From assembly GCF_002165375.2 (NCBI RefSeq), contig NZ_CP032127.1, positions 1-17,009 of the forward strand: a stretch of 17,009 nt of DNA. The letters are read 5' to 3'. A model generated the notes under the pieces. The model had not been told where the DNA came from and ran no database searches. It saw only the letters and a list, made by a program, of their open reading frames with translations. The DNA is from Acinetobacter chinensis. GTDB lineage: Bacteria > Pseudomonadota > Gammaproteobacteria > Pseudomonadales > Moraxellaceae. Of this stretch, positions 889 through 17,009 are shown in pieces (within the stretch, counting starts at the first letter, position 1; each line of letters begins with the position of its first letter). The translations under genes and the position numbers were made by a program.

Positions 889-964
889 GGTTTGATTGTG
901 TATGTAGCGGTTGACTGTTTCTTAATGTATCTTAGTTCACATAATAGACAACCTAAATTACAAC

Positions 965-2034: not shown

Positions 2035-2123
2035 GGGAGGACACTGTGATGCTAGCTTTTGTTTTCACCTAAATCCTGTTTGCTGCATAAAAAATTTCAA
2101 GAGCTAAACAGGAGTAAATAAAA
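2035..2123 (+). promoter_or_regulatory. Candidate msr(E) leader: SD plus 7-codon mini-ORF (MLAFVFT, 2049-2072) followed by a hairpin that sequesters the msr(E) SD
   Basis: GGGAGG (2035-2040) lies 8 nt before ATG 2049, and the mini-ORF stops at TAA 2070-2072. CCTGTTTGCT (2075-2084) pairs with AGC(T)AAACAGG (2102-2112), which overlaps the msr(E) SD AGGAG (2110-2114). Confidence 0.4.
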
Positions 2124-3599
2124 ATGAGTTTAATTATTAAAGCGAGAAACATACGCTTGGATTATGCTGGGCGTGATGTTTTGGATATTGATGAATTGGA
2201 AATTCACTCTTATGACCGTATTGGTCTTGTGGGTGATAACGGAGCAGGAAAGAGTAGTTTACTCAAAGTACTTAATGGCGAAATTGTTTTAGCCGAAGCG
2301 ACATTACAGCGTTTTGGTGATTTTGCACATATCAGCCAACTGGGCGGAATCGAAATAGAAACGGTCGAAGACCGGGCAATGTTATCTCGCCTTGGTGTTT
2401 CCAATGTACAAAACGACACAATGAGTGGCGGAGAGGAAACTCGTGCAAAAATTGCTGCCGCATTTTCCCAACAAGTACATGGCATTCTAGCGGATGAACC
2501 AACCAGCCACCTTGATCTCAATGGAATAGATCTACTTATTGGTCAACTTAAAGCATTTGATGGAGCATTACTTGTTATCAGTCATGACCGATATTTTCTT
2601 GATATGGTTGTAGACAAGATATGGGAGTTAAAAGACGGTAAAATTACGGAATATTGGGGTGGTTACTCGGATTACTTGCGTCAAAAAGAAGAAGAGCGAC
2701 AACACCAAGCCGTAGAATATGAGCTGATGATGAAGGAACGGGAGCGATTAGAATCTGCTGTGCAAGAAAAACGCCAGCAAGCTAATCGATTAGACAATAA
2801 GAAAAAAGGAGAAAAATCCAAAAACTCTACCGAAAGTGCTGGACGACTTGGGCATGCAAAAATGACTGGCACCAAGCAAAGAAAACTGTATCAGGCAGCT
2901 AAGAGTATGGAAAAGCGTTTGGCTGCATTAGAAGATATTCAAGCACCAGAGCATTTGCGTTCTATTCGTTTTCGTCAAAGTTCAGCCCTAGAACTGCACA
3001 ATAAGTTCCCGATTACGGCAGATGGTCTGAGCTTAAAATTTGGTAGCCGTACTATCTTTGATGACGCTAACTTTATAATACCGCTTGGCGCTAAAGTCGC
3101 TATAACTGGATCGAATGGAACAGGGAAAACGTCCTTGTTAAAAATGATATCAGAACGTGCTGATGGATTAACCATATCTCCAAAAGCTGAAATTGGCTAC
3201 TTTACACAAACAGGATATAAATTTAACACGCATAAATCTGTGCTCTCCTTTATGCAGGAAGAGTGCGAGTACACAGTTGCGGAAATTCGTGCAGTATTGG
3301 CTTCAATGGGGATCGGAGCGAATGATATTCAAAAAAACTTATCCGACTTATCGGGAGGTGAAATCATCAAACTGCTTTTATCCAAAATGCTTTTAGGAAA
3401 ATATAATATTTTGCTTATGGATGAACCAGGAAACTATCTTGACCTAAAAAGTATTGCCGCATTAGAAACAATGATGAAGTCCTATGCAGGAACTATTATC
3501 TTCGTATCTCATGACAAGCAATTGGTCGATAATATTGCTGACATTATCTACGAGATCAAAGACCACAAAATCATCAAGACTTTTGAGAGAGATTGTTAA
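2124..3599 (+). CDS. msr(E): Msr(E) ABC-F ribosomal-protection protein (macrolide/streptogramin B resistance)
   Basis: The 491-aa protein has two ABC ATPase domains: Walker A 'GDNGAGKS' and 'GSNGTGKT', and signatures 'MSGGE' and 'LSGGE'. These are joined by a charged linker with no TM domain. I recognise the sequence as Msr(E). An AGGAG SD lies 9 nt upstream. Confidence 0.95.
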
Positions 3600-3654
3600 T
3601 GATAGCCAATCTAATCCGAACATTAATTATTGAACTCTTTAAAGGAAATTAAAA

Positions 3655-4539
3655 ATGACAATTCAAGATATTCAATCACTTGCTGAAGCACACGGCTTGT
3701 TGCTTACGGACAAAATGAATTTCAATGAAATGGGCATTGATTTTAAGGTCGTTTTTGCTCTTGATACAAAGGGGCAACAATGGTTGCTGCGTATTCCTCG
3801 TCGTGATGGCATGAGGGAACAAATCAAGAAAGAAAAACGCATTTTAGAATTGGTAAAAAAACATCTTTCTGTAGAGGTTCCTGATTGGAGAATTTCATCT
3901 ACAGAATTAGTGGCTTATCCCATACTTAAAGATAATCCTGTTTTAAATTTGGATGCTGAAACCTATGAAATAATTTGGAATATGGACAAAGATAGCCCGA
4001 AATACATAACATCTTTGGCAAAAACCTTATTTGAAATCCATAGTATTCCTGAAAAAGAAGTTCGGGAAAATGATTTGAAAATTATGAAACCTTCAGATTT
4101 AAGACCTGAAATAGCAAACAATTTGCAGTTAGTAAAATCTGAAATTGGTATAAGTGAGCAATTGGAAACCCGCTACAGAAAATGGTTGGATAATGATGTT
4201 CTATGGGCAGATTTCACCCAATTTATACATGGCGATTTATATGCTGGGCATGTACTAGCTTCAAAGGATGGAGCTGTTTCAGGCGTTATTGATTGGTCAA
4301 CAGCCCATATAGATGACCCAGCGATTGATTTTGCTGGGCATGTAACTTTGTTTGGAGAAGAAAGCCTCAAAACTCTAATCATCGAGTATGAAAAACTAGG
4401 GGGTAAAGTTTGGAATAAACTATATGAACAGACTTTAGAAAGAGCAGCGGCCTCTCCTTTGATGTATGGTTTATTTGCCTTAGAAACTCAAAATGAAAGC
4501 CTTATCGTTGGAGCAAAAGCTCAGTTGGGAGTTATATAA
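3655..4539 (+). CDS. mph(E): Mph(E) macrolide 2'-phosphotransferase
   Basis: The 294-aa protein has an APH-type kinase fold ('HGDLYAGHVL', 'GVIDWSTAHIDDPAIDF'). It lies immediately downstream of msr(E), as in the known msr(E)-mph(E) pair. Confidence 0.95.
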   Translation: MTIQDIQSLAEAHGLLLTDKMNFNEMGIDFKVVFALDTKGQQWLLRIPRRDGMREQIKKEKRILELVKKHLSVEVPDWRISSTELVAYPILKDNPVLNLDAETYEIIWNMDKDSPKYITSLAKTLFEIHSIPEKEVRENDLKIMKPSDLRPEIANNLQLVKSEIGISEQLETRYRKWLDNDVLWADFTQFIHGDLYAGHVLASKDGAVSGVIDWSTAHIDDPAIDFAGHVTLFGEESLKTLIIEYEKLGGKVWNKLYEQTLERAAASPLMYGLFALETQNESLIVGAKAQLGVI

Positions 4540-4618
4540 TTTAAAAATATGATTGCTGAGAACTGCCTTGTTTTGAAACTTGGTTGGCTTTAATTAGTTT
4601 TTAGTATTCTTTATAGAA

Positions 4619-4643
4619 AATGCCTCGATCAAGGGGCATTTCT
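4619..4643 (+). terminator. Possible weak terminator after mph(E)
   Basis: The hairpin AATGCCTC-GATCAA-GGGGCATT is followed by only a short T-containing tail (TTCT). Confidence 0.35.
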
Positions 4644-4650
4644 AACAATC

Positions 4651-4678
4651 ATTTAACATAAAATTTCTTATGTGAAGT
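4651..4678. other. pdif site (XerD-XerC orientation): ATTTAACATAA-AATTTC-TTATGTGAAGT
   Basis: An 11-6-11 site inverted relative to the site at 1673. It forms the right boundary of the msr(E)-mph(E) module. Confidence 0.85.
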
Positions 4679-4684
4679 AACCTG

Positions 4685-6176
4685 TGTAAGCCCCAAGTAG
4701 AAATGTCCGGTTTCTCCAAAGTAAAAATGTCCGCTTTTAGAATATGCACTTTTGCAATTTTCTTAGCGGACGGTTTGATATGTTGGTGTCTATGTCGGAT
4801 AAAGAACTTAAACGATTGTCGGTCTTGCAAGAAATCTGTGATCAACGCATAACCCAGTCCCAAGCTGCTCAGCTACTTCATATTTCAGAACGTCAGATCA
4901 GACGTTTATTGCAAAAATACAAAGCTCAAGGCCCAGCTGCATTAGCACATGCTGCACGTGGCCAAATCAGCAATTCCAGGCTTCCTGAAGAGCTCAGACT
5001 CAAGTGCCTCAATATTGTTTCGGATCAACTGCATGGTTTCGGACCCACTTTAGCGCATGAAAAGCTCACCACTGTTCATGGATTCGATATTTCAGTGGAA
5101 ACACTGCGTTCCTGGATGATTGCAGCCGATCTGTGGATTCCTCGCGCCAAGCGCCTGAAACGCCCGTATCAGCCTCGTTATAACCGAGATTGTTATGGTG
5201 AACTGATTCAAATCGATGGCTCACACCATGACTGGTTTGAAGGACGCGCTGCTAAGTGCTGTCTGCTGGTATTTATCGATGATGCCACAGGAAAATTACA
5301 GCATTTACGTTTCTGTGAGTCGGAATCAGCATTTGACTATATGATTTCAACACGTTTGTATGTTGAGCAGCATGGTAAGCCGTTGGCGTTTTACAGTGAT
5401 AAACATTCAGTCTTCAGGGTGAATCAAAGCAGCAAGAAAGACACCAAGATTACCCAGTTTGGACGCGTACTCAGTACCCTCAATATCGATATCATCTTCG
5501 CCAATTCACCACAAGCCAAAGGCCGTGTAGAACGGGCGAATAGAACGCTTCAGGACCGTCTGATTAAAGAAATGCGCCTGGAAGGCATCTATTCGATTGA
5601 GCAAGCGAATGCCTGGCTGCCCTGCTTTATCGAGCAATTTAATCGTAAATTTGCCAATATGGCCTTTAATCCCAAGGATCTACACCGGACTGTCACTGAA
5701 ACAGCCGAAGAATTAGATGATGTTTTTACCTGGCGTGAACCCCGCAGAGTCACGAACAGCCTGACGATTACTTATGATAAATGCGTATATTTACTGGAAA
5801 ATACCGAAGAAAATAAAAGGTTGATCGGCAAGTATCTTGAGTTTCTGGAATACCCGGATGGCACGGTAGCCATTGAACATCAAGGAAGAAAAATCAATTA
5901 CAGCATCTTCGATAAATTAAGTCAGCTCAACCAGCGAGAGGTTGTTGAGAATAAACGTTTAGGTGCTGTTCTCAATCATATTCAACAACAGCACGAAGAA
6001 TTAGAACAGCAAAACAAACGCAATCGTTCTCAAAAGATGCCGAGCAGACGTGCACAGAAAACAGTAATCAAAGAACGAAATCTGAATCCTGTGCTTGACT
6101 TGGAAGTGTCTGTATAGGACATTTCTATTTGGTTATTAGGTAGGACATTTCTACTTAGGAATAACAAACCTGAATG
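4685..6176 (+). mobile_element. Insertion sequence, IS1202-group (ISNCY-type), with 24-bp imperfect IRs and a 6-bp target duplication
   Basis: IRL is TGTAAGCCCCAAGTAGAAATGTCC (4685-4708). The reverse complement of IRR (6153-6176) is TGTTATTCCTAAGTAGAAATGTCC, giving 20/24 identity. A second subterminal (A/T)A(A/G)AAATGTCC copy sits at each end. A direct repeat AACCTG lies at 4679-4684 and 6177-6182. Confidence 0.8.
4792..6117 (+). CDS. DDE transposase of the IS1202-group element (N-terminal HTH plus integrase-core domain)
   Basis: The ORF is open from ATG 4744, with alternative ATGs at 4780 and 4792. I prefer 'MSDKELKRLSVLQEI...' by resemblance to related transposases. It has an HTH ('ITQSQAAQLLHISERQIRRLL') and an rve-like core ('IQIDGSHHDWF...FIDDATG...YSDKHSVF'). 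Confidence 0.8.
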   Translation: MSDKELKRLSVLQEICDQRITQSQAAQLLHISERQIRRLLQKYKAQGPAALAHAARGQISNSRLPEELRLKCLNIVSDQLHGFGPTLAHEKLTTVHGFDISVETLRSWMIAADLWIPRAKRLKRPYQPRYNRDCYGELIQIDGSHHDWFEGRAAKCCLLVFIDDATGKLQHLRFCESESAFDYMISTRLYVEQHGKPLAFYSDKHSVFRVNQSSKKDTKITQFGRVLSTLNIDIIFANSPQAKGRVERANRTLQDRLIKEMRLEGIYSIEQANAWLPCFIEQFNRKFANMAFNPKDLHRTVTETAEELDDVFTWREPRRVTNSLTITYDKCVYLLENTEENKRLIGKYLEFLEYPDGTVAIEHQGRKINYSIFDKLSQLNQREVVENKRLGAVLNHIQQQHEELEQQNKRNRSQKMPSRRAQKTVIKERNLNPVLDLEVSV

Positions 6177-6216
6177 CAGCGGTGCCCCATTGGGGGCGCG
6201 TTGAGATAAGCCTCTT

Positions 6217-6828
6217 TTAGATAACTTTAGCAACTCGATAGACAGTTGCAACTCCACAATTCACTGCTTTGGCAATTTCTTCCTTAGTCATATTGCCAAC
6301 TACTAGCAATTCTTTTATTCGTTTATGTTTAGCCTCATTTGCCTTCTTGCCTGTTGGTTTGTAACCCGAACGTGCCAGGCCCTGCTTAATACGTTCTATA
6401 CGTTTCTCATTGTCTAGGCGGGCCATTGTTGCCAGAAGATCAATCAACATATTGTTGATGAGTTCCAAGATTGAATGAGTAATGCTGTCACTGGTTTGAA
6501 TCATTTGGTAGGTAGTAGGAAGATCTGCTACGACTAAACGAAGTCCCTTCTCCTGGATCCTGCGCTTCAGCTCTTGAAAATCTCGTTGGGTTAGGCGTGA
6601 TAAGCGGTCAATACTTTCAACTAACAATGTGTCACCTTGATTTGCTTCTGACAGTAGCTTATTCAATTCAGGTCGGTCTAACTTCGTACCACTATAGTTT
6701 TCCACGTACACAATGGTTTCACCCAAATTCAAGTTTTGGTTTAGATCCTGAAGAATCTGCAAAGCCCTTTCTGCATCTTGATCTTTAGTTGAAGCTCGTA
6801 GATAAATACGTGTATTCATTTCTATCAT
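6217..6828 (-). CDS. Serine recombinase / resolvase-invertase family protein
   Basis: The N-terminus 'MNTRIYLRASTKDQ' carries the catalytic-Ser motif, followed by 'ESIDRLSR', and a C-terminal HTH ('EEIAKAVNCGVATVYRV'). The start may be ATG 6819 (MNTRIY...) rather than 6828. Confidence 0.85.
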   Translation of the reverse strand: MIEMNTRIYLRASTKDQDAERALQILQDLNQNLNLGETIVYVENYSGTKLDRPELNKLLSEANQGDTLLVESIDRLSRLTQRDFQELKRRIQEKGLRLVVADLPTTYQMIQTSDSITHSILELINNMLIDLLATMARLDNEKRIERIKQGLARSGYKPTGKKANEAKHKRIKELLVVGNMTKEEIAKAVNCGVATVYRVAKVI

Positions 6829-6925
6829 TTAATCTTAATTCTATTAGATTAATGATAATACTATCATTTAATTATTGCATTAAGTCTAATGATAGATATT
6901 GTATGCGATTTGGCTCGCTATCATT
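6823..6925. repeat. Five alternating copies of TATCATT/AATGATA upstream of the recombinase gene (candidate res or operator sites)
   Basis: TATCATT occurs at 6823, 6862 and 6919. AATGATA occurs at 6851 and 6888. The central AATGATA-ATAC-TATCATT (6851-6868) is an 18-bp palindrome. Confidence 0.45.
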
Positions 6926-6975
6926 CAGGTATAGTCTTTTGATAAAAAAAGCATGACTAAAAGCCATGCCTTGGG

Positions 6976-7003
6976 AATTCGTATAACGTGTATTATGTTA
7001 ATT
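6976..7003. other. pdif site (XerC-XerD orientation): AATTCGTATAA-CGTGTA-TTATGTTAATT
   Basis: An 11-6-11 site followed by the same TTTAGA flank as the site at 1673. It forms the left boundary of the tet(39) module. Confidence 0.85.
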
Positions 7004-7053
7004 TTAGATAAACTATAGAATCCATTAGTTTTTAAACCAATAAATTAAATATT

Positions 7054-8241
7054 TTATGGAACTCCAGAATATTTATTCAGGCGATACTTAAGCAATAAGG
7101 GTAGGGTGATTACATAAAGTATTGCAGCTAATGCCCATACCATTCCAGGAGCTGATGCCTGAGTCATAAAATAGAGGCTAGTAACTAATACAGGACCAAT
7201 TATAGCCCCCAGACTATTAAAACTGCTTAATAGCCCTTGTAATTCACCTTGTCTTTCATCACTAATACCTCTGGACATCATTGCTTGCAAAGCAGGAACG
7301 GCTACTCCACCAAGGGCAAACAATGGTAACAACGCAAAAGGCACCCATTCTTCAACAGCAATAGATAAAAGAAGTAAACCAATTGCATCGCAAGCTATTC
7401 CACATAACAACGTATTTTTCTCTCCAAACCTCTTTACCATAGGGGCGATAGCAAAAGCCTGTGCAATAGAATGGCATATTCCATAACTAGCAAGGGAAAC
7501 ACCTGCAATAAATATACTCCAGCCATAACGATCCTGCCCATAGATAACCCATAAAGTTGCGGGGACTTGTGAAACCAATGTGATAATTAAAAAGATACCA
7601 AGCAATGGAGCCATATTAGGTTGAGTGATCAAATAGGATAATTTCTTTAATATTGATTGCTCCTGAACCTTCTCAGTCATTTTATTGCTGTGTTTTGATT
7701 CTTTTAATAAGACTGCTGTCATTATTAAATTAATCCCATTCATAAAAGCAGCAGCAAAGAACGGTGCATGTAAGTTCCATTCACCCAAAACTCCACCTAT
7801 TACCGGACCCGCTATAAACCCAATACCAAAGACAGCTCCAAGGAGACCAAACCTTTTTGCACGCTCATGGGCTGGAGTAATATCTGAAACATAAGCTGTT
7901 GCAACAGCCATGTTGGCACCTGTAATTCCCGCAAAAATACGACCAATATATAGCCACAATAGAGAAGGAGCAGCAGCCATTAGGAGATAATCAGCCGTTG
8001 CACCAGCAATTGAAATAATTAATACAGGTCGACGTCCAAATCGGTCACTCAACGCTCCAAGGATAGGTGCAAAAATGAACTGCATCAGAGCATACACAGC
8101 TAATAAAGCACCATAGTGAACACCGCCTGCTTCAGCTCCAGCCAATGACCGTAATAATTCAGGCAAGATCGGCATAATTAAACCAATCCCAACAGCATCC
8201 AGAAATATAGTGATTAAAATCACGCTCAATGATTTCTTCAC
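7054..8241 (-). CDS. tetA(39): TetA(39) tetracycline efflux MFS transporter
   Basis: A 12-TM MFS protein with 'LDAVGIGLIMPILPELL' and 'LSDRFGRRPVL' motifs, divergent from a TetR gene across tetO operators. The GTG at 8241 gives a 395-aa product starting 'MKKSLSVILITIF'. The track's 8286 start would run through the operator region. Confidence 0.92.
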   Translation of the reverse strand: MKKSLSVILITIFLDAVGIGLIMPILPELLRSLAGAEAGGVHYGALLAVYALMQFIFAPILGALSDRFGRRPVLIISIAGATADYLLMAAAPSLLWLYIGRIFAGITGANMAVATAYVSDITPAHERAKRFGLLGAVFGIGFIAGPVIGGVLGEWNLHAPFFAAAFMNGINLIMTAVLLKESKHSNKMTEKVQEQSILKKLSYLITQPNMAPLLGIFLIITLVSQVPATLWVIYGQDRYGWSIFIAGVSLASYGICHSIAQAFAIAPMVKRFGEKNTLLCGIACDAIGLLLLSIAVEEWVPFALLPLFALGGVAVPALQAMMSRGISDERQGELQGLLSSFNSLGAIIGPVLVTSLYFMTQASAPGMVWALAAILYVITLPLLLKYRLNKYSGVP

Positions 8242-8249
8242 AAATGCCT

Positions 8250-8303
8250 TCTCTAGCAATGATAGAATTAATATTCTCTCACACACTCCCTATCAGTGAT
8301 AGA
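8250..8303. promoter_or_regulatory. Divergent tetA/tetR control region with two tetO-like operators
   Basis: TCCCTATCAGTGATAGA (8287-8303) is a near-consensus tetO palindrome. TCTCTAGCAATGATAGA (8250-8266) is a second, related palindrome. Confidence 0.75.
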
Positions 8304-8306
8304 TTT

Positions 8307-8948
8307 ATGAGTAAAAAAGATATTGCACCTCAACGTCTGACACGTGAAATAGTCCTGCGTACCGCATTGGATATGTTGAATGAAGAAGGCATAGATTCAA
8401 TAACCACACGCAAGCTAGCTCAACGATTGGGTATTAAATCTCCAACTCTATATTGGCATTTCAAGAATAAATCCTTGTTAATGGAAGCAATGGCGGAAAC
8501 CATTATAAATGAACACCATTTAGTTTCTTTACCCATCGATGGGATGACATGGCAAGATTGGTTGCTCGCTAATTCTGTAAGCTTTCGTCGAGCACTACTA
8601 GCTTACCGTGATGGTGCTCGTCTACATGCAAGAACTAGCCCCAGTCAAGGACATTTCAACACGATTGAGGCCCAAGTTGCGCTGTTATCTCATGCTGGGT
8701 TTTCTCCTGTTGAAGCAGTTGCATTACTTATGACATTAGGAAGGTTTATTGTTGGGTGGGTCCTTGAGGAGCAGCAAGAAGAAATAAGATCAGACCCACC
8801 ATTCGAAGCCGATCCAACTATATATCCACTCATGCTCCAAGGAGTGAATACCTTACAAAATATGAATGCGGATGACATTTTTGAAAATGGGATTCGTATG
8901 GTGATTATCGGTGCTGAAAGACAACTTGATATTAAAATGCAAACTTAA
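8307..8948 (+). CDS. tetR(39): TetR(39) tetracycline repressor
   Basis: A TetR-family HTH ('TTRKLAQRLGIKSPTLYWHFKNK'). ATG 8307 follows the operator directly, whereas the track's 8229 start would overlap tetA and the operators. Confidence 0.92.
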   Translation: MSKKDIAPQRLTREIVLRTALDMLNEEGIDSITTRKLAQRLGIKSPTLYWHFKNKSLLMEAMAETIINEHHLVSLPIDGMTWQDWLLANSVSFRRALLAYRDGARLHARTSPSQGHFNTIEAQVALLSHAGFSPVEAVALLMTLGRFIVGWVLEEQQEEIRSDPPFEADPTIYPLMLQGVNTLQNMNADDIFENGIRMVIIGAERQLDIKMQT

Positions 8949-9004
8949 CTCTATACTGCTTTAAGCAACTGTTCTATTTAGTAATAAAGCTTTTATCCTT
9001 AATT

Positions 9005-9020
9005 ATTTAACATAATAGAG
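9005..9020. other. Left part of an IS-disrupted pdif site: XerD arm ATTTAACATAA plus start of the central region
   Basis: The XerD arm is identical to those at 4651 and 14400. Joined to 10307-10318 it reconstitutes ATTTAACATAA-TAGAGC-TTATACGAAAC. Confidence 0.65.
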
Positions 9021-9077
9021 GTGGTCCCACTTGTTTGAACAACTAAAAGCGTATTTATAAGTGATATTCCGCTCTAG

Positions 9078-9956
9078 TTAAGCCACCTTGTTTTGTTGGG
9101 GTAGCTGATCATAGTAAAACTCATTTGGTGTCATTTTGTCTAGACTCGAATGAGGTCGTTTCAAATTATAAAACTCAAAATATGCACTTAATTGCTTTTT
9201 CGCATCTGTGACACTGCTATAAGCTTTGAGATACACCTCTTCATATTTAACGCTCCGCCATAATCGTTCAACCATCACATTATCTACCCATCGACCTTTA
9301 CCATCCATACTGATTTGAATGCCATTTGATTTCAATACATCAATAAATGCATCACTGGTAAACTGGCTGCCTTGGTCTGTATTAAATATTTCAGGTCGAC
9401 CATATTTTTCAATCGCTTCATTTAAAGCCGAAATACAAAAATCCACCTCCATACTAATCGATACCCTATGCGCAAGTACCTTGCGGCTATGCCAATCAAT
9501 CACAGCACATAAATAAACAAAGCCTTTTGCCATAGGGATATACGTTATATCCGTAGACCACACTTGATTACTGCGCTGAATAGCCAACCCTTTGAGCAGA
9601 TATGGATATTTACGGTGAGCTTGATTAGCCTGGCTTAAATTTGGTTTGCAATATAACGCCTGAATACCCATTTTCTTCATTAAAGTACGTGTATGACGTC
9701 GTCCTATATGATGTCCTTGACGATTCAACAAATCACGCATCATACGACTGCCTGCAAAAGGATATTGCATATGTAATTCATCAATACATCGCATCAGCTT
9801 CAGATCTGATGCACTCACAGGTTTTGGGCGATAGTAATAACAACCACGGGAGACTTTCAGCAGCTTAGCTTGCTTAGATACTGAAATCTGAAGTGAGTCG
9901 TCGATTAACTTTTGTGGTTGAAGCGGCCCAGTTTCTTCAACACACCTTCTAAAAAA
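9078..9956 (-). CDS. IS3-family transposase OrfB (DDE integrase core), expressed as an OrfAB fusion by -1 frameshift
   Basis: The -1 frame is open from 9956. The slippery heptamer T TTT TTA lies at 9950-9956 on the minus strand, inside the orfA/orfB overlap. An rve core is present ('WSTDITYI...', 'FNTDQGSQFTS', 'VERLWRSVKYE'). Confidence 0.8.
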   Translation of the reverse strand, partial: FFRRCVEETGPLQPQKLIDDSLQISVSKQAKLLKVSRGCYYYRPKPVSASDLKLMRCIDELHMQYPFAGSRMMRDLLNRQGHHIGRRHTRTLMKKMGIQALYCKPNLSQANQAHRKYPYLLKGLAIQRSNQVWSTDITYIPMAKGFVYLCAVIDWHSRKVLAHRVSISMEVDFCISALNEAIEKYGRPEIFNTDQGSQFTSDAFIDVLKSNGIQISMDGKGRWVDNVMVERLWRSVKYEEVYLKAYSSVTDAKKQLSAYFEFYNLKRPHSSLDKMTPNEFYYDQLPQQNKVA

Positions 9957-10210
9957 TCAATTTCTAATGCCTGCTCACCGATTTTTGCATGTAGTTTTTT
10001 TAGATCGATGGGTGGTTCTGTTGGAGCTTTTGATTGATCGAAAGCTTGCGAGGAAGCTGAGATCAATTGATTTTTCCAGTCAATAATTTGGTTTTGATGA
10101 ACATCAAACTCAGCACTCAATTCAGCAAGTGTTTTTTCTGCTTTAATCGCAGCAAGTGCTACCTTAGCTTTAAAATCATTTGAATGATTTCTTCTTGGTC
10201 TACGTGCCAT
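9905..10210 (-). CDS. IS3-family transposase OrfA (HTH)
   Basis: 'MARRPRRNHSNDFKAKVALAAIKAEKTLAELSAEFDVHQNQIIDWKNQL' is a typical IS3 OrfA with a leucine-zipper-like tail. The track ORF starts 4 codons earlier, at 10222. Confidence 0.85.
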   Translation of the reverse strand: MARRPRRNHSNDFKAKVALAAIKAEKTLAELSAEFDVHQNQIIDWKNQLISASSQAFDQSKAPTEPPIDLKKLHAKIGEQALEIDFLEGVLKKLGRFNHKS

Positions 10211-10301
10211 AAAATACTCCATATATTGATGTTTATAACATCATTTGAGGAGCAGAATATCACTTATAGGAGTTGTTCAAATTTACGGATCCATCTCTTA
10301 A

Positions 10302-10318
10302 TAGAGCTTATACGAAAC
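10302..10318. other. Right part of the IS-disrupted pdif site: central region TAGAGC plus XerC arm TTATACGAAAC
   Basis: See the feature at 9005-9020. The XerC arm (reverse complement GTTTCGTATAA) closely matches the other XerC arms. Confidence 0.65.
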
Positions 10319-10386
10319 GTGTTTTTAATATTACTTTAAGATCAGTATCTTATCGTTATTCATACCCTCTGGAACGTTCTCGTTCA

Positions 10387-10416
10387 ACCGACTTGGAAAC
10401 AAGTCGGTTTCTTTTT
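10387..10416 (+). terminator. Rho-independent terminator
   Basis: The stem is ACCGACTT / AAGTCGGT with a GGAAAC loop, followed by TTCTTTTT. Confidence 0.6.
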
Positions 10417-10721
10417 AAGCAAAACTGTAACTTTTAGCCAATAAAATTGATCAAAAAACATTCGTTTTTACATTTTTTCCTGATTTCTCAAGGGTCACAG
10501 TTCAGAAATAATCCCCAATTTCTGCGGACAACTCTTGGGATAAAAAGTGACCAAACTTGTACGTTTTGGCGCACATTCATTCAGGTGCTTTGCGTCTATG
10601 CCATTCTTCATCAATTTCTTATCATGGGGACATAGAGAGCAGGATGCTCCAGATAAGAATAATAAGATCAGATACAAGGAATGTGAGGTACGACAGGAGT
10701 TATACCTAAGCATCAAATACG

Positions 10722-10751
10722 AAAAACCCCGACAGGATGTCGGGGTTTTTT
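10722..10751. terminator. Bidirectional rho-independent terminator; ends the minus-strand RexAB-like operon
   Basis: A GC-rich stem CCCCGACA / TGTCGGGG, with A5 upstream and T6 downstream, so a T-run follows the hairpin on both strands. Confidence 0.8.
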
Positions 10752-10763
10752 ATTGTCCGAATG

Positions 10764-10791
10764 TTCTCGAAAAATCAGTATTATGCTCATT
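10764..10791. other. Degenerate pdif-like site (XerC-XerD orientation): TTCTCGAAAAA-TCAGTA-TTATGCTCATT
   Basis: The XerD arm matches TTATGTTAATT at 9/11 and is followed by the same TTTAGAAAA flank as the sites at 1673 and 6976. The XerC arm keeps the TCG..A.AA core (7/11). Its orientation fits the alternating pattern of the other sites. Confidence 0.4.
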
Positions 10792-10814
10792 TTAGAAAAA
10801 TTAAATGTTCTAAG

Positions 10815-11282
10815 CTATGCCACCTTATTGCTATTAACCAATACGTTAATACCAACAAATATGGTTAAGACTGATTGCAAGAAACTTGCAATAAATAATC
10901 CAACGAAAAACTTCAATAAAATTGACAAATTAATAGCTTCTGTTTTAGCAAAACCAAGTATTGATAGAAAGCCGGCCAAAGATAGGTAGATAAGACACGA
11001 TACCCATAAACAAGCAAAAGCTACTCCGAACTTTCTACGGTAGTTATTAACTCCTGGCTTAGATAGTCCGTATACCAACGTTACAATCATTGCTACGATT
11101 CCAAACATTGCTATTGAGTAACTCAATAGCGCAGTTGCAAGATCTTTGGAATTTTTATAGAAGCTAAAAGTAAAAAAGTTATTGAGATAGTGGAAATAGG
11201 CACACTCTATCAGAAGCCCAATTAGCGGGGTTGTAAAGATAAGCAATACGATCATCCATCTGTTCTGGGACTTCTTGTTCAT
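10815..11282 (-). CDS. RexB-like small inner-membrane protein with four predicted TM helices
   Basis: About 155 aa from ATG 11282, with an AAGG 9 nt upstream; the track uses TTG 11291. Four hydrophobic segments are present: WMIVLLIFTTPLIGLLIECAYF, LATALLSYSIAMFGIVAMIVTLVYGL, FGVAFACLWVSCLIYLSLAGFLSILGF and LSILLKFFVGLFIASFLQSVLTIFVGI. It lies directly downstream of the RexA-like gene. Confidence 0.6.
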   Translation of the reverse strand: MNKKSQNRWMIVLLIFTTPLIGLLIECAYFHYLNNFFTFSFYKNSKDLATALLSYSIAMFGIVAMIVTLVYGLSKPGVNNYRRKFGVAFACLWVSCLIYLSLAGFLSILGFAKTEAINLSILLKFFVGLFIASFLQSVLTIFVGINVLVNSNKVA

Positions 11283-12135
11283 ACTCTTCAACCTTATCTT
11301 TTAGCTCTACATTATTCTCAATTTTTTCCTTTATCTCATCGAAAACCTTACTTTCTTCAGTGCTTTTAATCTCGTCATATAGTGCACCAGCACTATGGAT
11401 ATAAAAATCTTTTACATTATCTTCAAGATTTTGTTTTCCTCGTAAAATAATGCCTTTGATACCATCATCCTCCATAGATACCAATGTTTTTTTAATAGTG
11501 TCAGTTAAAGATTTCCTTGATGCCGGCTTAATAATGATTTCAAAACTTTCAATAACTTCTAGATCATTAGGATTAGTCGATCCTAAGAAAAATTCTTTAA
11601 ATGATTCCCCTAGACTACTATCTTTACGAACTAAAAACCGTGTAGTTCCAATAAATGGTAGTGTCATAGCCTGATTCTTTGTAATTTCAGTTTTCAAAGG
11701 ATGAACAACAAAACTAATATCCTGAATTCTGAGCATAACAAGTAAGTTATTTATATACATTTGGAATGCTGTAAACTTTGGAGAAAGTACTCTTGATGCA
11801 AATCCAAATACTCTTAGTGTTGGATGAAAATACACATACGATGCAAACCCTAAACTCTCATCTTTACTTAATAAAGACTGAATCTCATAAGCCTTAATTT
11901 CATCGTCTTTCTTCTCAATTCTTTTAATAATTTCTCTATCTTTAGTCTGTACAAATAAATAAAAGCTATTTACGACAGGAAGTAAATATAGGTTTTCGCC
12001 AGAATGTCGGTTTTGCTTAGCGAATGGTAAAGCTTCATTCGAAGTTGATGATTTAATAAAATCATTGATCTCCATTCTAAATTGGCTTTTATCTTCAAAT
12101 TTTTCAAAACAATAAGTAAAGTAGTTAAGTTTCAA
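11179..12135 (-). CDS. RexA-like protein (phage-exclusion / abortive-infection sensor component)
   Basis: A 318-aa soluble protein with a TTG start and a strong SD GAGGGG 8 nt upstream. The blocks 'YLFVQTKDREIIKRI', 'DESLGFASYVYF...FGFASRVLSP', 'PFIGTTRF' and 'EIIIKPASRK' line up with my recollection of lambda RexA ('FLFTKTNDKSLVQKI', 'DESLGFPSFLFV...IGFARTVFGP', 'HFIGRTT', 'DIVIKPKFKR'). Confidence 0.6.
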   Translation of the reverse strand: MKLNYFTYCFEKFEDKSQFRMEINDFIKSSTSNEALPFAKQNRHSGENLYLLPVVNSFYLFVQTKDREIIKRIEKKDDEIKAYEIQSLLSKDESLGFASYVYFHPTLRVFGFASRVLSPKFTAFQMYINNLLVMLRIQDISFVVHPLKTEITKNQAMTLPFIGTTRFLVRKDSSLGESFKEFFLGSTNPNDLEVIESFEIIIKPASRKSLTDTIKKTLVSMEDDGIKGIILRGKQNLEDNVKDFYIHSAGALYDEIKSTEESKVFDEIKEKIENNVELKDKVEEYEQEVPEQMDDRIAYLYNPANWASDRVCLFPLSQ

Positions 12136-12357
12136 GTGTTAATCCCCTCATTAATCAAAACATAATATCTTAAATATCAACTAAAAGTGCTCACCTTTAA
12201 GGGCGTGTAAAGAACCTAGTTCTTATATTATTTCCACATATCAATCTTAGTCTGGTACAGCTCCACAAATGTTAGCTGTCTCACGACAAATTTTTTCATA
12301 AGTTTTACTTTCAAAAAAAACTTGCAATCATATGCATTCATTATCAATATATCATTT

Positions 12358-12369
12358 TGTCCTAGGACA
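12358..12369. promoter_or_regulatory. Perfect 12-bp palindrome TGTCCTAGGACA 20 nt upstream of the wHTH gene (candidate operator)
   Basis: The sequence is self-complementary and is followed by a further GGACA copy (12372-12376). It lies between a TTGCAA -35-like hexamer (12322-12327) and the ATG at 12389. Confidence 0.35.
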
Positions 12370-12388
12370 GCGGACACTGTGAATTAAA

Positions 12389-13015
12389 ATGCTTAAGTCT
12401 CAAGATATTCTTGTTTTAGTAAAGTTGCTATCTATTCAAAATGGATTACGTACATCGTCAAACTTCAGTAGGACCTATAGCAACGATTACTCGGACTTCT
12501 ATTTAAAAAGATCTCTTAGCCATCTGTTGTCAGTTAGAGGACTGGCCGAATCTATTGTTATGGGTAAAAGTGAAGTATCAGAATGCATTAAACGATTAGT
12601 AAAAGTTGGCCTACTAGTTATTCACAATCAAAACTTTTCTCAAAGATTGGACTTAGCTAGTCTGGATTGGGATATTAATAAAAGGGGATTTTTCCATTTA
12701 GTCATTTATAGTTTTCAATATTTTTTCCCAGCAGAACTAAAATCAATGGATTTTGGGCTTCCTACAGCATTTTCTAAAGAAGGTCTAAATTCTCTCTTAG
12801 CATATAGCTCTCCAGTACCTTATATTTGGCCAATACAAACCTATAAATCTATTTCAGGCATAGCAGTTGAACCTATGCATAAATCAATACCATATGCAGC
12901 AATTAATGATGAATATCTCTATGAAATATTTGCAATAATTGATATTTTTAGAATGGGTTCTCCTAGAGAGAAACATATCGCAGAAAAACTATTTTTAGAC
13001 ATTTTAGGCTTGTAA
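12389..13015 (+). CDS. Winged-helix DNA-binding protein, AbiEi-like putative antitoxin/regulator
   Basis: A 208-aa protein with an HTH ('LSVRGLAESIVMGKSEVSECIKRLVKVGLL') in the N-terminal half and a separate C-terminal domain. It is the first gene of a tightly packed three-gene operon. Confidence 0.55.
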   Translation: MLKSQDILVLVKLLSIQNGLRTSSNFSRTYSNDYSDFYLKRSLSHLLSVRGLAESIVMGKSEVSECIKRLVKVGLLVIHNQNFSQRLDLASLDWDINKRGFFHLVIYSFQYFFPAELKSMDFGLPTAFSKEGLNSLLAYSSPVPYIWPIQTYKSISGIAVEPMHKSIPYAAINDEYLYEIFAIIDIFRMGSPREKHIAEKLFLDILGL

Positions 13016-13020
13016 AACGA

Positions 13021-13719
13021 ATGAACTCACCATTAATTATAATGCTAGAAAAAGTAGCAAATGCCCTAACTCAAGATCTTAGGCAGGAAATGGTATTCAT
13101 TGGTGGATGTACTACTAGTCTACTGTTAGATCCTGAAAATCATTCATTAGCTACAAGATACACATATGATGTGGATCTAATTGTAGATATAACAACTCAT
13201 GCAGAATGGTATTCACTAGAAGAGAAGATTCGGAAATTAGGTTTCGTGAATGATCAAAATGATAATATTTTATGTCGCTATAGATTAGGGAATGACTTGA
13301 TTGTTGACTTTATGCCTACAGATTCAAATATCTTAGGTTTTAGTAACTATTGGTATGAACAAGCTATTACTCACAAGATTACGTATTGTCTACCAAATAA
13401 AACTGAAATAAACATACTCGAATCCCCATATTTTTTGGCTACAAAATTTGAAGCTTACAAAGGTCGAGGAAATAATGACCCCTTAATGAGTAAAGATATA
13501 GAAGATATTTTAACTGTATGTATGGGTCGAAGCTCTCTAGTTGAAGAAATATACTCTAGCCCTCAAGAGTTAAGAGATTATCTCTCTAATGTACTATTAG
13601 AGTTACACCATCATTCAGAATTTGAAATTGTCTTAGATGATCAATGTCGATATGGTTCAAAAGAAAGAGTTAGGCAAGTTATAAACGCAATAATCAAACA
13701 ATGGAATAAAGCTTTCTAA
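13021..13719 (+). CDS. Nucleotidyltransferase-fold protein, AbiEii/MenT-like putative toxin
   Basis: A 232-aa protein with a Pol-beta-type NTase signature: 'FIGGCTTSLL' (G-G/S loop) followed by 'YDVDLIVD' (DxD). A helical C-terminal part contains 'PYFLATKFEAYKGRG...SKDIEDIL'. It starts 5 nt after the wHTH gene's stop. Confidence 0.6.
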   Translation: MNSPLIIMLEKVANALTQDLRQEMVFIGGCTTSLLLDPENHSLATRYTYDVDLIVDITTHAEWYSLEEKIRKLGFVNDQNDNILCRYRLGNDLIVDFMPTDSNILGFSNYWYEQAITHKITYCLPNKTEINILESPYFLATKFEAYKGRGNNDPLMSKDIEDILTVCMGRSSLVEEIYSSPQELRDYLSNVLLELHHHSEFEIVLDDQCRYGSKERVRQVINAIIKQWNKAF

Positions 13720-14393
13720 TGATTTTTTTCCATTTTACTCATAATCAATGCCTTCCTAACAAACATGGAATAGATGGAACCGGTGAACTTAAATCTAATC
13801 CGCTTTTAGAACTTTGCTATGTAATTGATGGACATAGTAAACATCCCAATAGCGCTATTCTGGTATCTAATTTCCATAAATTTATTCTGGAAAAAAAAGA
13901 AGAATTTACAGATTTAATAAATGAAGATGAGGTAATTAGAGAATTCCTTGAAAGAGTAATTAAAGAATTTCACAAATCTCAATATAGACAGCTCATCCCA
14001 GCAGCCATGAGTATCTGCCTAATCATTTTTAGTCCCCAAAAGGTCTACAGTGTGCATCTAGGAGACTGCCGTTTAGGTCTAATTTTTGAAAAAAAGTTAG
14101 AGTGGTTAACTTATCCACATAATTTAACAATGTGCCGGATTATAGATATTGAAACTTTAGACTTAGAAGAAACATTAAGATCTTCAGCTGATAATCATAT
14201 TGTAACTAATTCTTTAAATACTAAACGCCTAAAAAAAATTGAAATAAATGTATTTAATAGAAAAAAAGGAACATATCTTTTAGCAACAGATGGTTTATGG
14301 AAATTAGAGGTTCATAAAATTCTATCAACTGTAAAAAATAAAGAAAACTATAATGAAATTGATGATTTAGCTTTCATTATAGCTAATGACTAG
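13719..14393 (+). CDS. Minimal PP2C-family (PPM) Ser/Thr phosphatase-like protein
   Basis: A 224-aa protein with the four acidic PPM motifs in the canonical order: 'VIDGHS', 'HLGDCRLG', 'LLATDGLW' and 'IDDLAFII'. Its ATG overlaps the NTase stop (TAATG). Confidence 0.65.
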   Translation: MIFFHFTHNQCLPNKHGIDGTGELKSNPLLELCYVIDGHSKHPNSAILVSNFHKFILEKKEEFTDLINEDEVIREFLERVIKEFHKSQYRQLIPAAMSICLIIFSPQKVYSVHLGDCRLGLIFEKKLEWLTYPHNLTMCRIIDIETLDLEETLRSSADNHIVTNSLNTKRLKKIEINVFNRKKGTYLLATDGLWKLEVHKILSTVKNKENYNEIDDLAFIIAND

Positions 14394-14399
14394 TTCTTC

Positions 14400-14430
14400 A
14401 TTTAACATAAAAAAATCTCTTATGCGAAGC
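14400..14430. other. pdif-like site (XerD-XerC orientation) with an atypical 9-bp central region: ATTTAACATAA-AAAAATCTC-TTATGCGAAGC
   Basis: The XerD arm is identical to those at 4651 and 9005. The XerC arm (reverse complement GCTTCGCATAA) resembles the other XerC arms. The arms are 9 bp apart instead of 6 bp because of an A7 run. Confidence 0.45.
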
Positions 14431-14563
14431 TTGCTTGTTAAAAACCATTTGTGAAGATCTGTATCAAGATTATTGAGAGTATCTATAAAAAATGATGATG
14501 TAGCTATCAAGTCAACCAACTATCTTTGGACATTTAGTTTTCGAATATTATAGGCGGATAAAA

Positions 14564-14806
14564 ATGAGTTTTATGGAACAAATAGAAGAATCTCCAGCTA
14601 AACTGATAGCGATAGCTTTGACGGTAAATTTAATCCTTTTATCATGGATTTTGGATGGCTTCCTCCAAACAAATTTGATTGCATTTAGTCTTCATCACCC
14701 TGATGGAGATATTTTAATATTCACAATAATAGTACTGCTTCTTCTTACTTATATGATTAGTGGTAAATCAGGGCTATTAATGAAATTTTTTTCATTTTTT
14801 GACTAA
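14564..14806 (+). CDS. Small hypothetical membrane protein (two predicted TM helices)
   Basis: An 80-aa ORF with hydrophobic segments 'LIAIALTVNLILLSWILDGF' and 'ILIFTIIVLLLLTYMI'. GGA lies about 7 nt upstream of the ATG. Confidence 0.45.
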   Translation: MSFMEQIEESPAKLIAIALTVNLILLSWILDGFLQTNLIAFSLHHPDGDILIFTIIVLLLLTYMISGKSGLLMKFFSFFD

Positions 14807-15103
14807 TTGTAATCATGCTTATTCACCATTAAATAAACAATCCAATTGTTTTTCTTATGTTTTTTTAACTTTCGTCGAGTCTTAATAATAAAATATTAAA
14901 CTTTCAAAAGACAAGAGTGGCTTACCAGTCATGGACCTGTAGACCATAAAAGATATGGCGAGCTAAATACATTATTCCAAAACTTATGTGAAATATAGCG
15001 GTTCTATTGCATAGGAAACTGAGGTCTAATACCCCATCCCTTCTCACATGATCCACTTTAACAGCTCAAGATTTATGGGACTTTATTAAAATCCCTATAG
15101 AAT

Positions 15104-15137
15104 AAAAAATATGGGAGTAAAAACTCCCATATTTTTT
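15104..15137. terminator. Bidirectional rho-independent terminator immediately after the 85-aa gene
   Basis: The stem is ATATGGGAG / CTCCCATAT with a TAAAAA loop. An A-run lies upstream and a T-run downstream. Confidence 0.7.
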
Positions 15138-15393
15138 AAAATTCTGCTTTTGAATCGGCTATCACATATGGCTTCCATTTAGGACTAGTACAGTTAAACT
15201 TTGGATCCTGATAGTGTGGAGGAAATTTATTATCTTTATCATGATCATTGACAGCGACTTCACGCTTACATTGAGTACATCGATAGATTCCTGAATGTGG
15301 AACTTTAGATCCAGCAGAAAAAATTTGATTAAAAAAGGCATCATTACTATTGGTAGAAAACTCATTTAAGGTTTTACGTTCAACTAAAGACAT
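15136..15393 (-). CDS. Small hypothetical protein with a zinc-ribbon-like motif
   Basis: An 85-aa protein. 'GIYRCTQCKREVAV...KFPPHYQDPKFNCTSPKW' gives CxxC plus a distal His/Cys. A strong terminator follows directly. Confidence 0.55.
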   Translation of the reverse strand: MSLVERKTLNEFSTNSNDAFFNQIFSAGSKVPHSGIYRCTQCKREVAVNDHDKDNKFPPHYQDPKFNCTSPKWKPYVIADSKAEF

Positions 15394-15523
15394 TTTAACT
15401 ATTCCAAATTGATTAAATCTGATCAGAATATCAACAATTTAACTCATAAACACATTCAAAAATGATAACTGCGACACACTTTGTCGTTAAGAATCACCTG
15501 TCTTCAGTTAAATGTAAAATCAC

Positions 15524-15829
15524 TTATTTTAACTTACCAATACAATCTAATATTTCCTTTAATTGCTCAGGATCATTTTCTTCTAACTTTTTAAAAACCT
15601 CCTCTAAAGCTATTTCAAGTAGTTGATTTAATAACTTATTTCTTGTTGGATTACCGAGGTGGGCTTTCAATGCCTCTACCTTTTCAAAGTTCCATTGATA
15701 TATACGAAATGGTACTTGATGAGTTACCCCTAAAGTCTCCGTGTTATATGTCCTAGCTTTAATTTGTGACACCAAAATATCTAACTCTTTCGGGTCATTT
15801 TCCCCCTTAACATAAAGTCTATTTAACAT
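15524..15829 (-). CDS. Hypothetical protein, possible ribbon-helix-helix-like regulator
   Basis: I prefer the start at Met18 of the track ORF ('MLNRLYVKG...'). 'VPFRIYQWNFEKVEALKAHLGNPTRNKLLNQLLEIALEEV' has a strand-helix-helix pattern. It is divergent from the next gene across TGATAT repeats. Confidence 0.4.
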   Translation of the reverse strand: MLNRLYVKGENDPKELDILVSQIKARTYNTETLGVTHQVPFRIYQWNFEKVEALKAHLGNPTRNKLLNQLLEIALEEVFKKLEENDPEQLKEILDCIGKLK

Positions 15830-15900
15830 TTCATCACCAATGAATTTGATATATAAAAATGATATAGTTTTTAATATCAAAAATACAAGTGAGTTTTAAA

Positions 15901-16437
15901 ATGGGACAAGCAAAAAATCGGGGCTCTCTGGAAGAAAGAGTTAAAAATGCTAAAAAATTTAGAAAAGAAGCTATCTTAAGTGAACTTAAAAAAATCGTAG
16001 AGGGGCATTATCAACACGTACCAGATCAATTTTCACATCGCCAGAACTATTTAGATGGATGTGTAATTGCAATGGATATTAAAGAAGCAATGGACATCGT
16101 CTTAGACGATGGCGATATTGGTATCATTGAAGATGGTTGCCCAAAACCAGAATATATATTAGGACTATTTGAAGTTGCTTTAGATAACTACGGTCTCGAT
16201 GATAATGAGAATATTCAGGAATGTGCAGCTTGGGTTGATGAAGACATAAGTATGAATACTACGTTCTTTAGATTTAAAGATGCATCAGAGTTTAATCAAT
16301 TAGAAGATGTTCTAAAGGCCGTTAATAAATTTTCATTTTGGTTGCCAACTTATATCATGCTAAACGGCACTTGGTATGATACTTACGAAATTGGTGCTGT
16401 AGATGAAAATGGAAATACTATAGGCTCCAGGTTTTAA
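15901..16437 (+). CDS. Hypothetical acidic protein
   Basis: A 178-aa product from ATG 15901; the track starts at GTG 15889. The central part is D/E-rich ('DIVLDDGDIGIIEDG', 'LDNYGLDDNENIQECAAWVDEDI'). A strong terminator follows. Confidence 0.55.
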   Translation: MGQAKNRGSLEERVKNAKKFRKEAILSELKKIVEGHYQHVPDQFSHRQNYLDGCVIAMDIKEAMDIVLDDGDIGIIEDGCPKPEYILGLFEVALDNYGLDDNENIQECAAWVDEDISMNTTFFRFKDASEFNQLEDVLKAVNKFSFWLPTYIMLNGTWYDTYEIGAVDENGNTIGSRF

Positions 16438-16447
16438 TTGATTTATA

Positions 16448-16474
16448 AAGCCCAGGTTAATCCTGGGCTTTTTG
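16448..16474. terminator. Rho-independent terminator shared by convergent genes
   Basis: The stem is AGCCCAGG / CCTGGGCT with a TTAAT loop, followed by TTTTT on the plus strand. Confidence 0.75.
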
Positions 16475-16627
16475 TTCAATCTGATCATTAGCCTCAAACA
16501 TGCCAGGATTGGTAATCTGGATATTGTCCTGACAATTTCCGCAAAGCATCAGCCCTGCAAAAAGCTGTACGTTTTCCCTTGAATCACAGAAAGCACATGG
16601 TTTAGAAAGTTGAATAATATTACTCAT
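16457..16627 (-). CDS. Unannotated 56-aa zinc-ribbon protein (CxxC-x14-CxxC), start/stop-coupled to the upstream RHH gene
   Basis: My manual translation is MSNIIQLSKPCAFCDSRENVQLFAGLMLCGNCQDNIQITNPGMFEANDQIEQKAQD. Its ATG (16627) overlaps the stop of the 129-aa gene as ATGAGTAA. It is absent from the supplied ORF track. Confidence 0.5.
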   Translation of the reverse strand: MSNIIQLSKPCAFCDSRENVQLFAGLMLCGNCQDNIQITNPGMFEANDQIEQKAQD

Positions 16628-17009
16628 GATTTTTTCCTTTCAGATAGCTAGCCTTGGCATGACTTCTTCCTTTAGCCTGCATTCCTCGAATCTCATATTT
16701 CTCTGTTTGTAGCTTCATAAGAATGCCTATTTGAAACATGTATATTTCCCCTAAATCTCCTAATAAATTTTCATTCAAAGAATTAGCTTGAGTAAATTGA
16801 TCCAATGATCGATTAATATCTTTTTCAAAATCATTCACCAGTGTTTCAATCCGACTGACTTGTCGCTCAATGCTGGCCATCTGTAAATTATTGGTCAGAA
16901 GATCCCGCAGATAAGTCCCTAATTTATCGCCCTTCAACTGAGCCAAACGCTCATATTCTTGTGCAACCTGATTGTCTAATCTGACGGCAACGGTTCGAGT
17001 ACTGTTCAT
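16620..17009 (-). CDS. Ribbon-helix-helix (CopG/Arc/MetJ-like) domain protein with coiled-coil C-terminal part
   Basis: The N-terminus 'RTVAVRLDNQVAQEYERLAQLKGDKLGTYLRDLL' has the strand-helix-helix pattern of RHH or MobC-like proteins. The ATG lies exactly at the window edge. Confidence 0.6.
   Translation of the reverse strand: MNSTRTVAVRLDNQVAQEYERLAQLKGDKLGTYLRDLLTNNLQMASIERQVSRIETLVNDFEKDINRSLDQFTQANSLNENLLGDLGEIYMFQIGILMKLQTEKYEIRGMQAKGRSHAKASYLKGKNHE

Follow-up and report, generated by a model that had tools for sequence, protein, structure and literature searches.

An 18,155-bp contig (C2) of the 3.7-Mb Acinetobacter chinensis genome appears to carry a cassette of phage-defence genes that can no longer move. 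Bases 1-17009 of this contig were analyzed (hereafter the window), and we consider it likely that positions 10764-14430 represent a D-type dif module whose cargo is two putative phage-defence systems, RexAB and PDC-M21, and which has been deprived of Xer mobility by private lesions at both ends. A module of this type is a cassette lying between two inverse pdif sites whose XerD arms point inward, and it would pass between co-resident plasmids in two Xer-catalysed steps, the second of which would resolve at another pair of sites. Once resident, RexA would detect infection and switch on the RexB membrane channel, leading to abortive infection by analogy with phage lambda. At the left end of the present copy, the ATAA motif of the XerC arm has been lost, together with one change in the spacer and two in the XerD arm, and at the right end the spacer has grown from 6 to 9 bp. 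These lesions would stop Xer mobility, with the five genes of the module remaining intact and under purifying selection.

The boundaries of the segment had been proposed in an earlier interpretation made from the DNA letters only (the sequence-only reading), as two degenerate pdif sites, the left in C/D orientation with the same flank as canonical sites and the right in D/C orientation with a 9-bp spacer. Both sites have the sequences claimed for them. The left site consists of XerC arm TTCTCGAAAAA, spacer TCAGTA and XerD arm TTATGCTCATT, followed by the flank TTAGAAAA, and departs from the pdif consensus at four positions of the XerC arm and two of the XerD arm. The right site combines a perfect XerD arm, ATTTAACATAA, with a 9-bp spacer, AAAAATCTC, and an XerC arm, TTATGCGAAGC, that has two mismatches, and it retains both inner motifs, ATAA and TTAT. 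When the window was shuffled 1000 times under a first-order Markov model, the expectation for sites of the left type, with a TTAGRA flank and up to six arm mismatches of which up to two lie in the XerD arm, was 0.001 per window. Sites of the right type, with a perfect XerD arm, a spacer of 6-9 bp and up to two mismatches in the XerC arm, arose in 0/1000 shuffles. A D-type module is defined by two inverse pdif sites, each with 11-bp XerC and XerD arms around a 6-bp spacer. In orientation and position the pair agrees with this definition, the departures being the 9-bp right spacer and the six arm mismatches on the left; in seven orthologous copies the XerD arms and the spacer lengths conform to it completely.

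The flank of the left site is a feature shared with other sites. Almost all TTATGTTAATT-type pdif sites, both here and in the plasmids that were fetched for comparison, have TTAG(A/G)A after them; this motif lies at 1701-1706, 7004-7009 and 10792-10797 of the window, is also present at the sites on G000 C1 and C8, and is missing from TTATGTTAAAT-type sites. This distribution suggests an extended recognition or accessory element for one class of XerD arm. Its presence lends extra weight to the view that the left site is a decayed real site.

The cargo is as the sequence-only reading described it: the segment contains only a RexAB-like pair and an operon of winged-helix, nucleotidyltransferase and PP2C genes, the two sharing a 253-bp divergent control region, and matches to Pfam, PADLOC and PDB 8TWQ bear out the assignment of these genes to defence families (Table 1). 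RexA scored 184.9 bits against Pfam PF15969 (cut-off 25) and aligned with the solved lambda RexA (PDB 8TWQ) at E=8.6e-14. The RexB-like protein matched its PADLOC profile over 130 of 141 positions; no Pfam support was found for it. Translation of rexB probably begins somewhat further in than the start of the open reading frame (ORF), because the copy on metagenome contig L038 gives a protein of 155 amino acids. The pair resembles lambda RexAB in its RexA homology and in having a small hydrophobic RexB-like partner directly downstream of, and overlapping, rexA. It differs in being plasmid-borne within a dif module, whereas the lambda genes are prophage-borne beside cI; moreover, the likeness to RexB is weak here (E=7e-7), and phage exclusion through membrane depolarisation is, for the present pair, a prediction from the genes.

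The second unit matches all three profiles of the PADLOC candidate system PDC-M21, with the genes adjacent, co-oriented and in A-B-C order; adjacent, co-oriented A, B and C genes are also found in 66%-identical copies. Here and in relatives the operon is tied to a pdif site with a GAGATT spacer, which directly adjoins or overlaps the stop codon of the PP2C gene, an arrangement kept even in the 66%-identical copies. A search by sequence did not find a solved structural relative of PDC-M21B. Genes next to PDC-M21 include RexAB here, ThsB-like TIR and PDC-M50A genes in plasmid CP085287, and the BREX gene brxL in pTol5 and pXH901, a guilt-by-association pattern that is consistent with a defence role. 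The pTol5 (L029) and pXH901 (L030) homologs lie about 0.6-1.8 kb from brxL, and both terminate at a pdif site whose spacer is GAGATT and whose XerC arm is degenerate. Within the genus, the PDC-M21B profile was positive in 4/240 species-representative genomes, counting this one, a number too small for statistical treatment.

None of the five genes is disrupted. Relative to their orthologs in pAJ14, a plasmid of A. johnsonii, ratios of nonsynonymous to synonymous divergence (dN/dS) were 0.11 for rexB, 0.06 for rexA, and 0.11, 0.04 and 0.13 for PDC-M21A, B and C, respectively, at synonymous divergences (dS) of 0.6-1.1. The five genes are thus under purifying selection, and their intactness together with dN/dS values of 0.04-0.13 at such dS shows that RexAB and PDC-M21 have long been co-inherited under selection.

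Recurrence of the block was examined among PLSDB plasmids and in a metagenome scan with RexA. In PLSDB, the complete block was present in pAJ14 (83% identity) and in p2_100004 of A. pittii (82%; NZ_CP027248). The metagenome scan added four further full copies (L039-L042) and a fragment covering the left junction (L044); contigs L038 and L043 also carry RexAB, accompanied within the L038 dif module by another partner gene. The backbones of pAJ14 and p2_100004 differ from the present one, since their Rep proteins share only 32-37% identity with that of this plasmid. Homology begins at 10778, inside the spacer of the left site, in p2_100004, L039 and L044, and it ends at 14412 in p2_100004 and at 14430 in pAJ14 and L039; metagenome contigs are homologous over 10778-14430 or end at 14428. 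Past 14430, the sequence of pAJ14 is backbone that resumes in the window only from 16449. The expectation of the sequence-only reading that the segment would be found in other backbones with breakpoints at its sites is thus borne out by pAJ14, p2_100004 and L039-L042, but not on the left side of pAJ14 and L040-L042, where homology runs on without a break at 10764 and includes the adjoining 445-bp C module. In those lineages the shared unit is a C+D pair, in accordance with the pairwise gain or loss of modules proposed in the literature (PMC13141974).

Five different sequences begin directly after the XerC arm of the right site, and the left neighbors of the module are of two kinds. Plasmid pAJ4131 shares only the outer side of the right site, from 14400 on, with its XerC arm and about 390 bp of the outer flank (14431-14823), joined there through a normal 6-bp spacer to another D module, with DUF6236 and HEPN genes. 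The right site therefore has independent partners on both sides, which is the signature of exchange at this site.

Comparison of the copies also shows that the defects in the window are derived. Only in the window does the left XerC arm end in AAAA rather than ATAA, is the left spacer TCAGTA rather than TCCGTA, and does the left XerD arm carry two substitutions (TTATGCTCATT compared with TTATGTTAATT in relatives); likewise, only here does the right spacer have three extra A, extending a run from four to seven, where relatives have the 6-bp AATCTC. In each of the seven other copies the XerD arm is perfect at both ends and the spacers are 6 bp long; the left spacer is TCCGTA or CGTGTA, and the right one is GAGATT (minus-strand reading). 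The XerD arms are unchanged among these copies although the synonymous distances given above, which were measured for the window and pAJ14 only, are large. The sites are thus conserved elsewhere and have decayed here. Exact matches to either mutated site numbered zero in the metagenome and zero in the genome collections, from which records close to this genome may be absent, and no site with a GAGATT, TCCGTA or TCAGTA spacer was found elsewhere in this genome.

From published Xer rules, binding and recombination would be expected to fail at the sites of this copy (PMC11705084, PMC13141974). Recombining Xer sites need matching spacers, and every documented inversion, deletion and cointegration at Acinetobacter pdif sites involved 6-bp spacers that were identical or differed at one position (PMC13141974). 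The site xrs107, which diverges within the ATAA-spacer-TTAT motif, was bound poorly, was not cleaved and did not recombine (PMC11705084). Given that the lesions break these spacer and ATAA-motif requirements and that the genome offers no compatible spacer elsewhere, the module in this plasmid is most likely immobile by the Xer route, in agreement with the suggestion of the sequence-only reading that it may be locked.

Several points weigh against this view of a locked defence module. Degeneracy of the arms is a weak sign of inactivity, because poor XerC arms are also found in relatives: the left XerC arm is already four to five mismatches away from the consensus there, and in pARA3 and p3SAAt401 a site with a poor XerC arm without ATAA and a one-mismatch XerD arm lies at the same junction, beside other modules. 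The right XerC arm of p2_100004 likewise lacks the ATAA/TTAT motif, and XerC arms of working pdif sites vary naturally (PMC11705084). The loss of binding and recombination at both sites is, moreover, a prediction from published requirements. As for the cargo, PDC-M21 is a computational candidate system only. We know of no demonstration of its function in defence, and to our knowledge RexAB has not been tested in Acinetobacter.

These points bear on the alternative that the element is a genuine dif module that still moves, its sites being divergent but functional through XerD-first or XerC-only recombination or through tolerance of a 9-bp spacer. The right site in particular, with its perfect XerD arm, good XerC arm and both inner motifs, could be taken for a working site, but its 9-bp spacer exceeds the central regions of natural Xer sites, which are 6-8 bp. 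The comparably degenerate XerC arms at the pARA3 and p3SAAt401 junctions, the wide variation among active arms and the poor binding of XerC alone (PMC11705084) would also make a divergent left arm tolerable; that site, however, is without the ATAA motif required for binding and cleavage (PMC11705084), a matching-spacer partner is absent from this genome and from the scanned collections, and the documented events all fall within the spacer limits described above (PMC13141974). On balance we regard continued mobility as unlikely. Less likely still is that the long right spacer reflects an assembly error, so that the right site would really have a 6-bp spacer and only the left site would be impaired. 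The three extra bases do fall in a homopolymer, as additional A in a single run; a gain of three in so short a homopolymer would be unusual, though, and the left site carries independent substitutions that are not homopolymer artefacts and that fit relaxed constraint at both ends.

It could also be argued that Xer recombination played no part, and that the pdif-like ends are simply conserved sequence used for homologous recombination or shuffling by insertion sequences (IS). Homologous recombination within a pdif site and its flank is indistinguishable from Xer exchange by sequence alone, RexAB by itself, lacking pdif sites, adjoins ISAba22 in A. baumannii OXA-24 plasmids, divergence of pARA3 and p3SAAt401 sets in about 15 bp past the XerD arm rather than in the spacer, and IS are common within and near the copies (ISAba26 in p2_100004, ISAba14 here). 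Such a scenario leaves unexplained why five right neighbors start exactly after the 11-bp XerC arm, why the left kinds end at the left site, why the right site has independent partners on both sides and why XerD arms are invariant among copies when the window and pAJ14 differ at a dS of about 1; experiments have, moreover, demonstrated that pdif sites on plasmids recombine in an XerC-dependent manner (PMC11705084). We therefore consider an origin without Xer very improbable, and favor a decayed dif module that formerly moved by Xer recombination.

Both the kind of element and its mechanism are known, and one copy has already been drawn. Like the tet39 and msrE-mphE dif modules of Acinetobacter (Blackwell & Hall; PMC13141974), the module has inverse 28-bp sites with XerD internal, alternates with C modules, and occurs as the same module in unrelated backbones with junctions at its sites. 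Unlike them, it carries a pair of phage-defence units in place of genes for resistance, toxin-antitoxin systems or metabolism, and both sites are damaged in this copy. The p2_100004 version shares the five-gene content, with pdif sites at orthologous positions, and differs in having 6-bp spacers, perfect XerD arms and ISAba26 within rexB; this IS256-like element interrupts the gene at 4134-5446 (L002). That plasmid has been described as an r3-T5/r3-T6 cointegrate, in which rexA is colored in Fig. 11 without comment and some pdif sites are starred as possibly non-functional (PMC13141974). BREX on GR13 plasmids was reported as not lying within an identifiable dif module (PMC9455709), and a study that correlated plasmids with defence systems described only resistance modules (PMC13125923). 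A description of a defence-system dif module was not found in the open-access full-text literature searched. What is new, and incremental, is the recognition of the segment as a dual phage-defence module, its spread, and its decayed state in this plasmid.

In Acinetobacter, dif modules have so far been known as carriers of antibiotic-resistance, toxin-antitoxin and stress genes. The present data would extend a known mechanism, and reveal no new one, by suggesting that the Xer-dependent cassette system also carries phage-defence genes, here as a two-system block linked across several species and backbones. Defence genes in dif modules would link phage resistance and antibiotic resistance on one shuffling platform, which bears on phage therapy against Acinetobacter. 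The decayed sites offer a natural pair of substrates for defining the requirements of Acinetobacter XerC/XerD for spacer length and the ATAA motif, and illustrate a possible route by which modules become fused into backbones.

The two systems do not appear to have been brought together at a pdif site. We considered that RexAB and PDC-M21 might be two modules that had lost the site between them, and found this unsupported: no pdif site was detected between them at up to six mismatches, and the relevant breakpoints are not pdif-like, copies with RexAB only ending at 12192 and those with PDC-M21 only beginning at 12290. RexAB alone (10815-12192) is the form found in the A. baumannii OXA-24 plasmids mentioned above; these copies, being without flanking pdif sites, were set aside as no help to the argument for a module. 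In A. lwoffii GC2, PDC-M21 is found by itself (from 12290), in a D module that also encodes a 393-amino-acid protein of unknown function and that lies between a site with a TCCGTA spacer and a perfect GAGATT site; in p6SAAs474 PDC-M21 belongs to a fused CD module. Because each system occurs singly with breakpoints that are not pdif-like, the block is a composite that was joined by non-Xer events within the present 253-bp control region and then spread as one module.

Related modules carry other combinations of genes. A second dual-defence D module is present at 904-4742 of CP085287 (L028, A. haemolyticus w12 p3), bounded by a C/D site and a GAGATT-spacer D/C site; in it, a PDC-M21 operon of 66% identity is preceded by PDC-M50A-like and ThsB-like TIR genes. 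In pAJ4131 (L037, NZ_CP045104), a D module at 591-2528 encodes DUF6236 and HEPN proteins (the latter a weak match to PDC-M28A, E=4e-7) and a third ORF. Its spacer pair, TCCGTA and GAGATT, is that of the RexAB+PDC-M21 module in pAJ14, so the two would be exchangeable 'alleles' under a cointegrate-resolution model. Convincing matches to defence families were not found for the DUF7946/7947 protein, the 393-amino-acid HHH protein or DUF6236. Units that partner PDC-M21 comprise RexAB, ThsB-like TIR with PDC-M50A, and the 393-amino-acid protein. From these cases it is conceivable, though we put it forward only tentatively, that dif modules act as exchangeable phage-defence cassettes of Acinetobacter Rep_3 plasmids, in which PDC-M21 may be anchored at the right site of a D-module family with one spacer pair (TCCGTA/CGTGTA on the left, GAGATT on the right). 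If so, site decay would be one route to the permanent residence of a defence cassette on a resistance plasmid.

The plasmid that carries the module is of the Rep_3/OrfX type treated by Ambrose, Xiao & Hall (2026, PMC13141974). This assignment follows from a Rep_3 initiator on the contig (Rep3_N E=2e-35, Rep3_C E=8e-22), from a downstream OrfX homolog with 52-58% identity to an annotated 'plasmid replication DNA-binding protein' of Acinetobacter plasmids, and from the known msr(E)-mph(E) and tet(39) dif modules, identified by megablast against PLSDB at 1673-4678 and 6976-9032. Plasmids of this type combine a backbone C module with accessory modules of both kinds, C and D, and the 28-bp pdif sites between modules are C/D and D/C by turns (PMC13141974). 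Six sites alternate in this manner around the 18,155-bp circle (Table 1), and the last 1.1 kb of the contig, beyond the window, contains no further pdif site. The accessory modules are, in order, D (msrE-mphE), C (an ISNCY-like transposase and a resolvase), D (tet39), C (445 bp) and D (10764-14430), and the backbone C module after 14430 closes the circle. The sequence-only reading had counted four clear sites upstream of the module and held that the orientations of its two boundaries were those needed to continue the alternation. Both boundaries do continue it, but the fourth site is split by ISAba14, and the orientations are consistent with the alternation without being required by it, as the four sites already alternate.

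Table 1. Features of the window, with coordinates, orientation and profile matches
Feature	Position	Strand or orientation	Description
pdif site	1673	C/D	perfect
pdif site	4651	D/C	
pdif site	6976	C/D	
Fourth pdif site	9005-10318	D/C	XerD arm 9005-9015; ISAba14 ~9021-10301; XerC arm 10308-10318
Small C module	10319-10763		445 bp; gene of recognisable function not found; terminator hairpin 10722-10750
Left module site	10764-10791	C/D, +	
Flank region	10792-10814	+	conserved TTAGAAAA flank, then short stretch to rexB stop codon
rexB-like	10815-11291	-	158-amino-acid ORF, small membrane protein; PADLOC RexB E=7e-7
rexA-like	11179-12135	-	318 amino acids; Pfam RexA PF15969 E=2.3e-54; PADLOC RexA E=7e-49
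Divergent control region	12136-12388		253 bp, between rexA and PDC-M21A
PDC-M21A	12389-13015	+	MarR-like winged-helix; PADLOC PDLC04515 E=5e-39; Pfam MarR faint, E=0.013
PDC-M21B	13021-13719	+	nucleotidyltransferase; PADLOC PDLC04516 E=5.7e-77; Pfam AbiEii faint, E=0.057
PDC-M21C	13719-14393	+	PP2C-type phosphatase; PADLOC PDLC04518 E=1.6e-23; Pfam PP2C E=1.1e-5
Right module site	14400-14430	D/C, -	

ISAba14, an element of the IS3 family, sits in the spacer of the right-hand pdif site of the tet39 module, so that a third one of the plasmid's six sites is disabled. The 445-bp C module separates this split site from the left site of the defence module.

In the control region, a promoter scan of 12136-12388 returned fewer matches than shuffled sequence and was uninformative. 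A perfect palindrome, GTCCTAGGAC, lies at about 12358-12367, just upstream of the PDC-M21A start, and is kept in the 68%-identical p6SAAs474 copy (L010/L027); it is probably an autoregulatory operator.

To the right of the module, the backbone C module contains about 2 kb of additional DNA (14431-16448) relative to pAJ14 and pAJ_082-4. Family matches were not found for its four small ORFs. A further pdif site was sought at 16421-16448, where homology to the pAJ14 backbone resumes, and none was present even at eight mismatches and with spacers of 5-9 bp; we therefore conclude that 14431-16448 is extra DNA within a composite backbone C module. Pieces of it recur elsewhere, 14431-14823 in pAJ4131 and 14922-16439 in CP065663, with a pdif site between the former piece and the next modules in pAJ4131 and another after the latter piece in CP065663. 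The region seems to consist of modules that were fused into the backbone and lost their sites.

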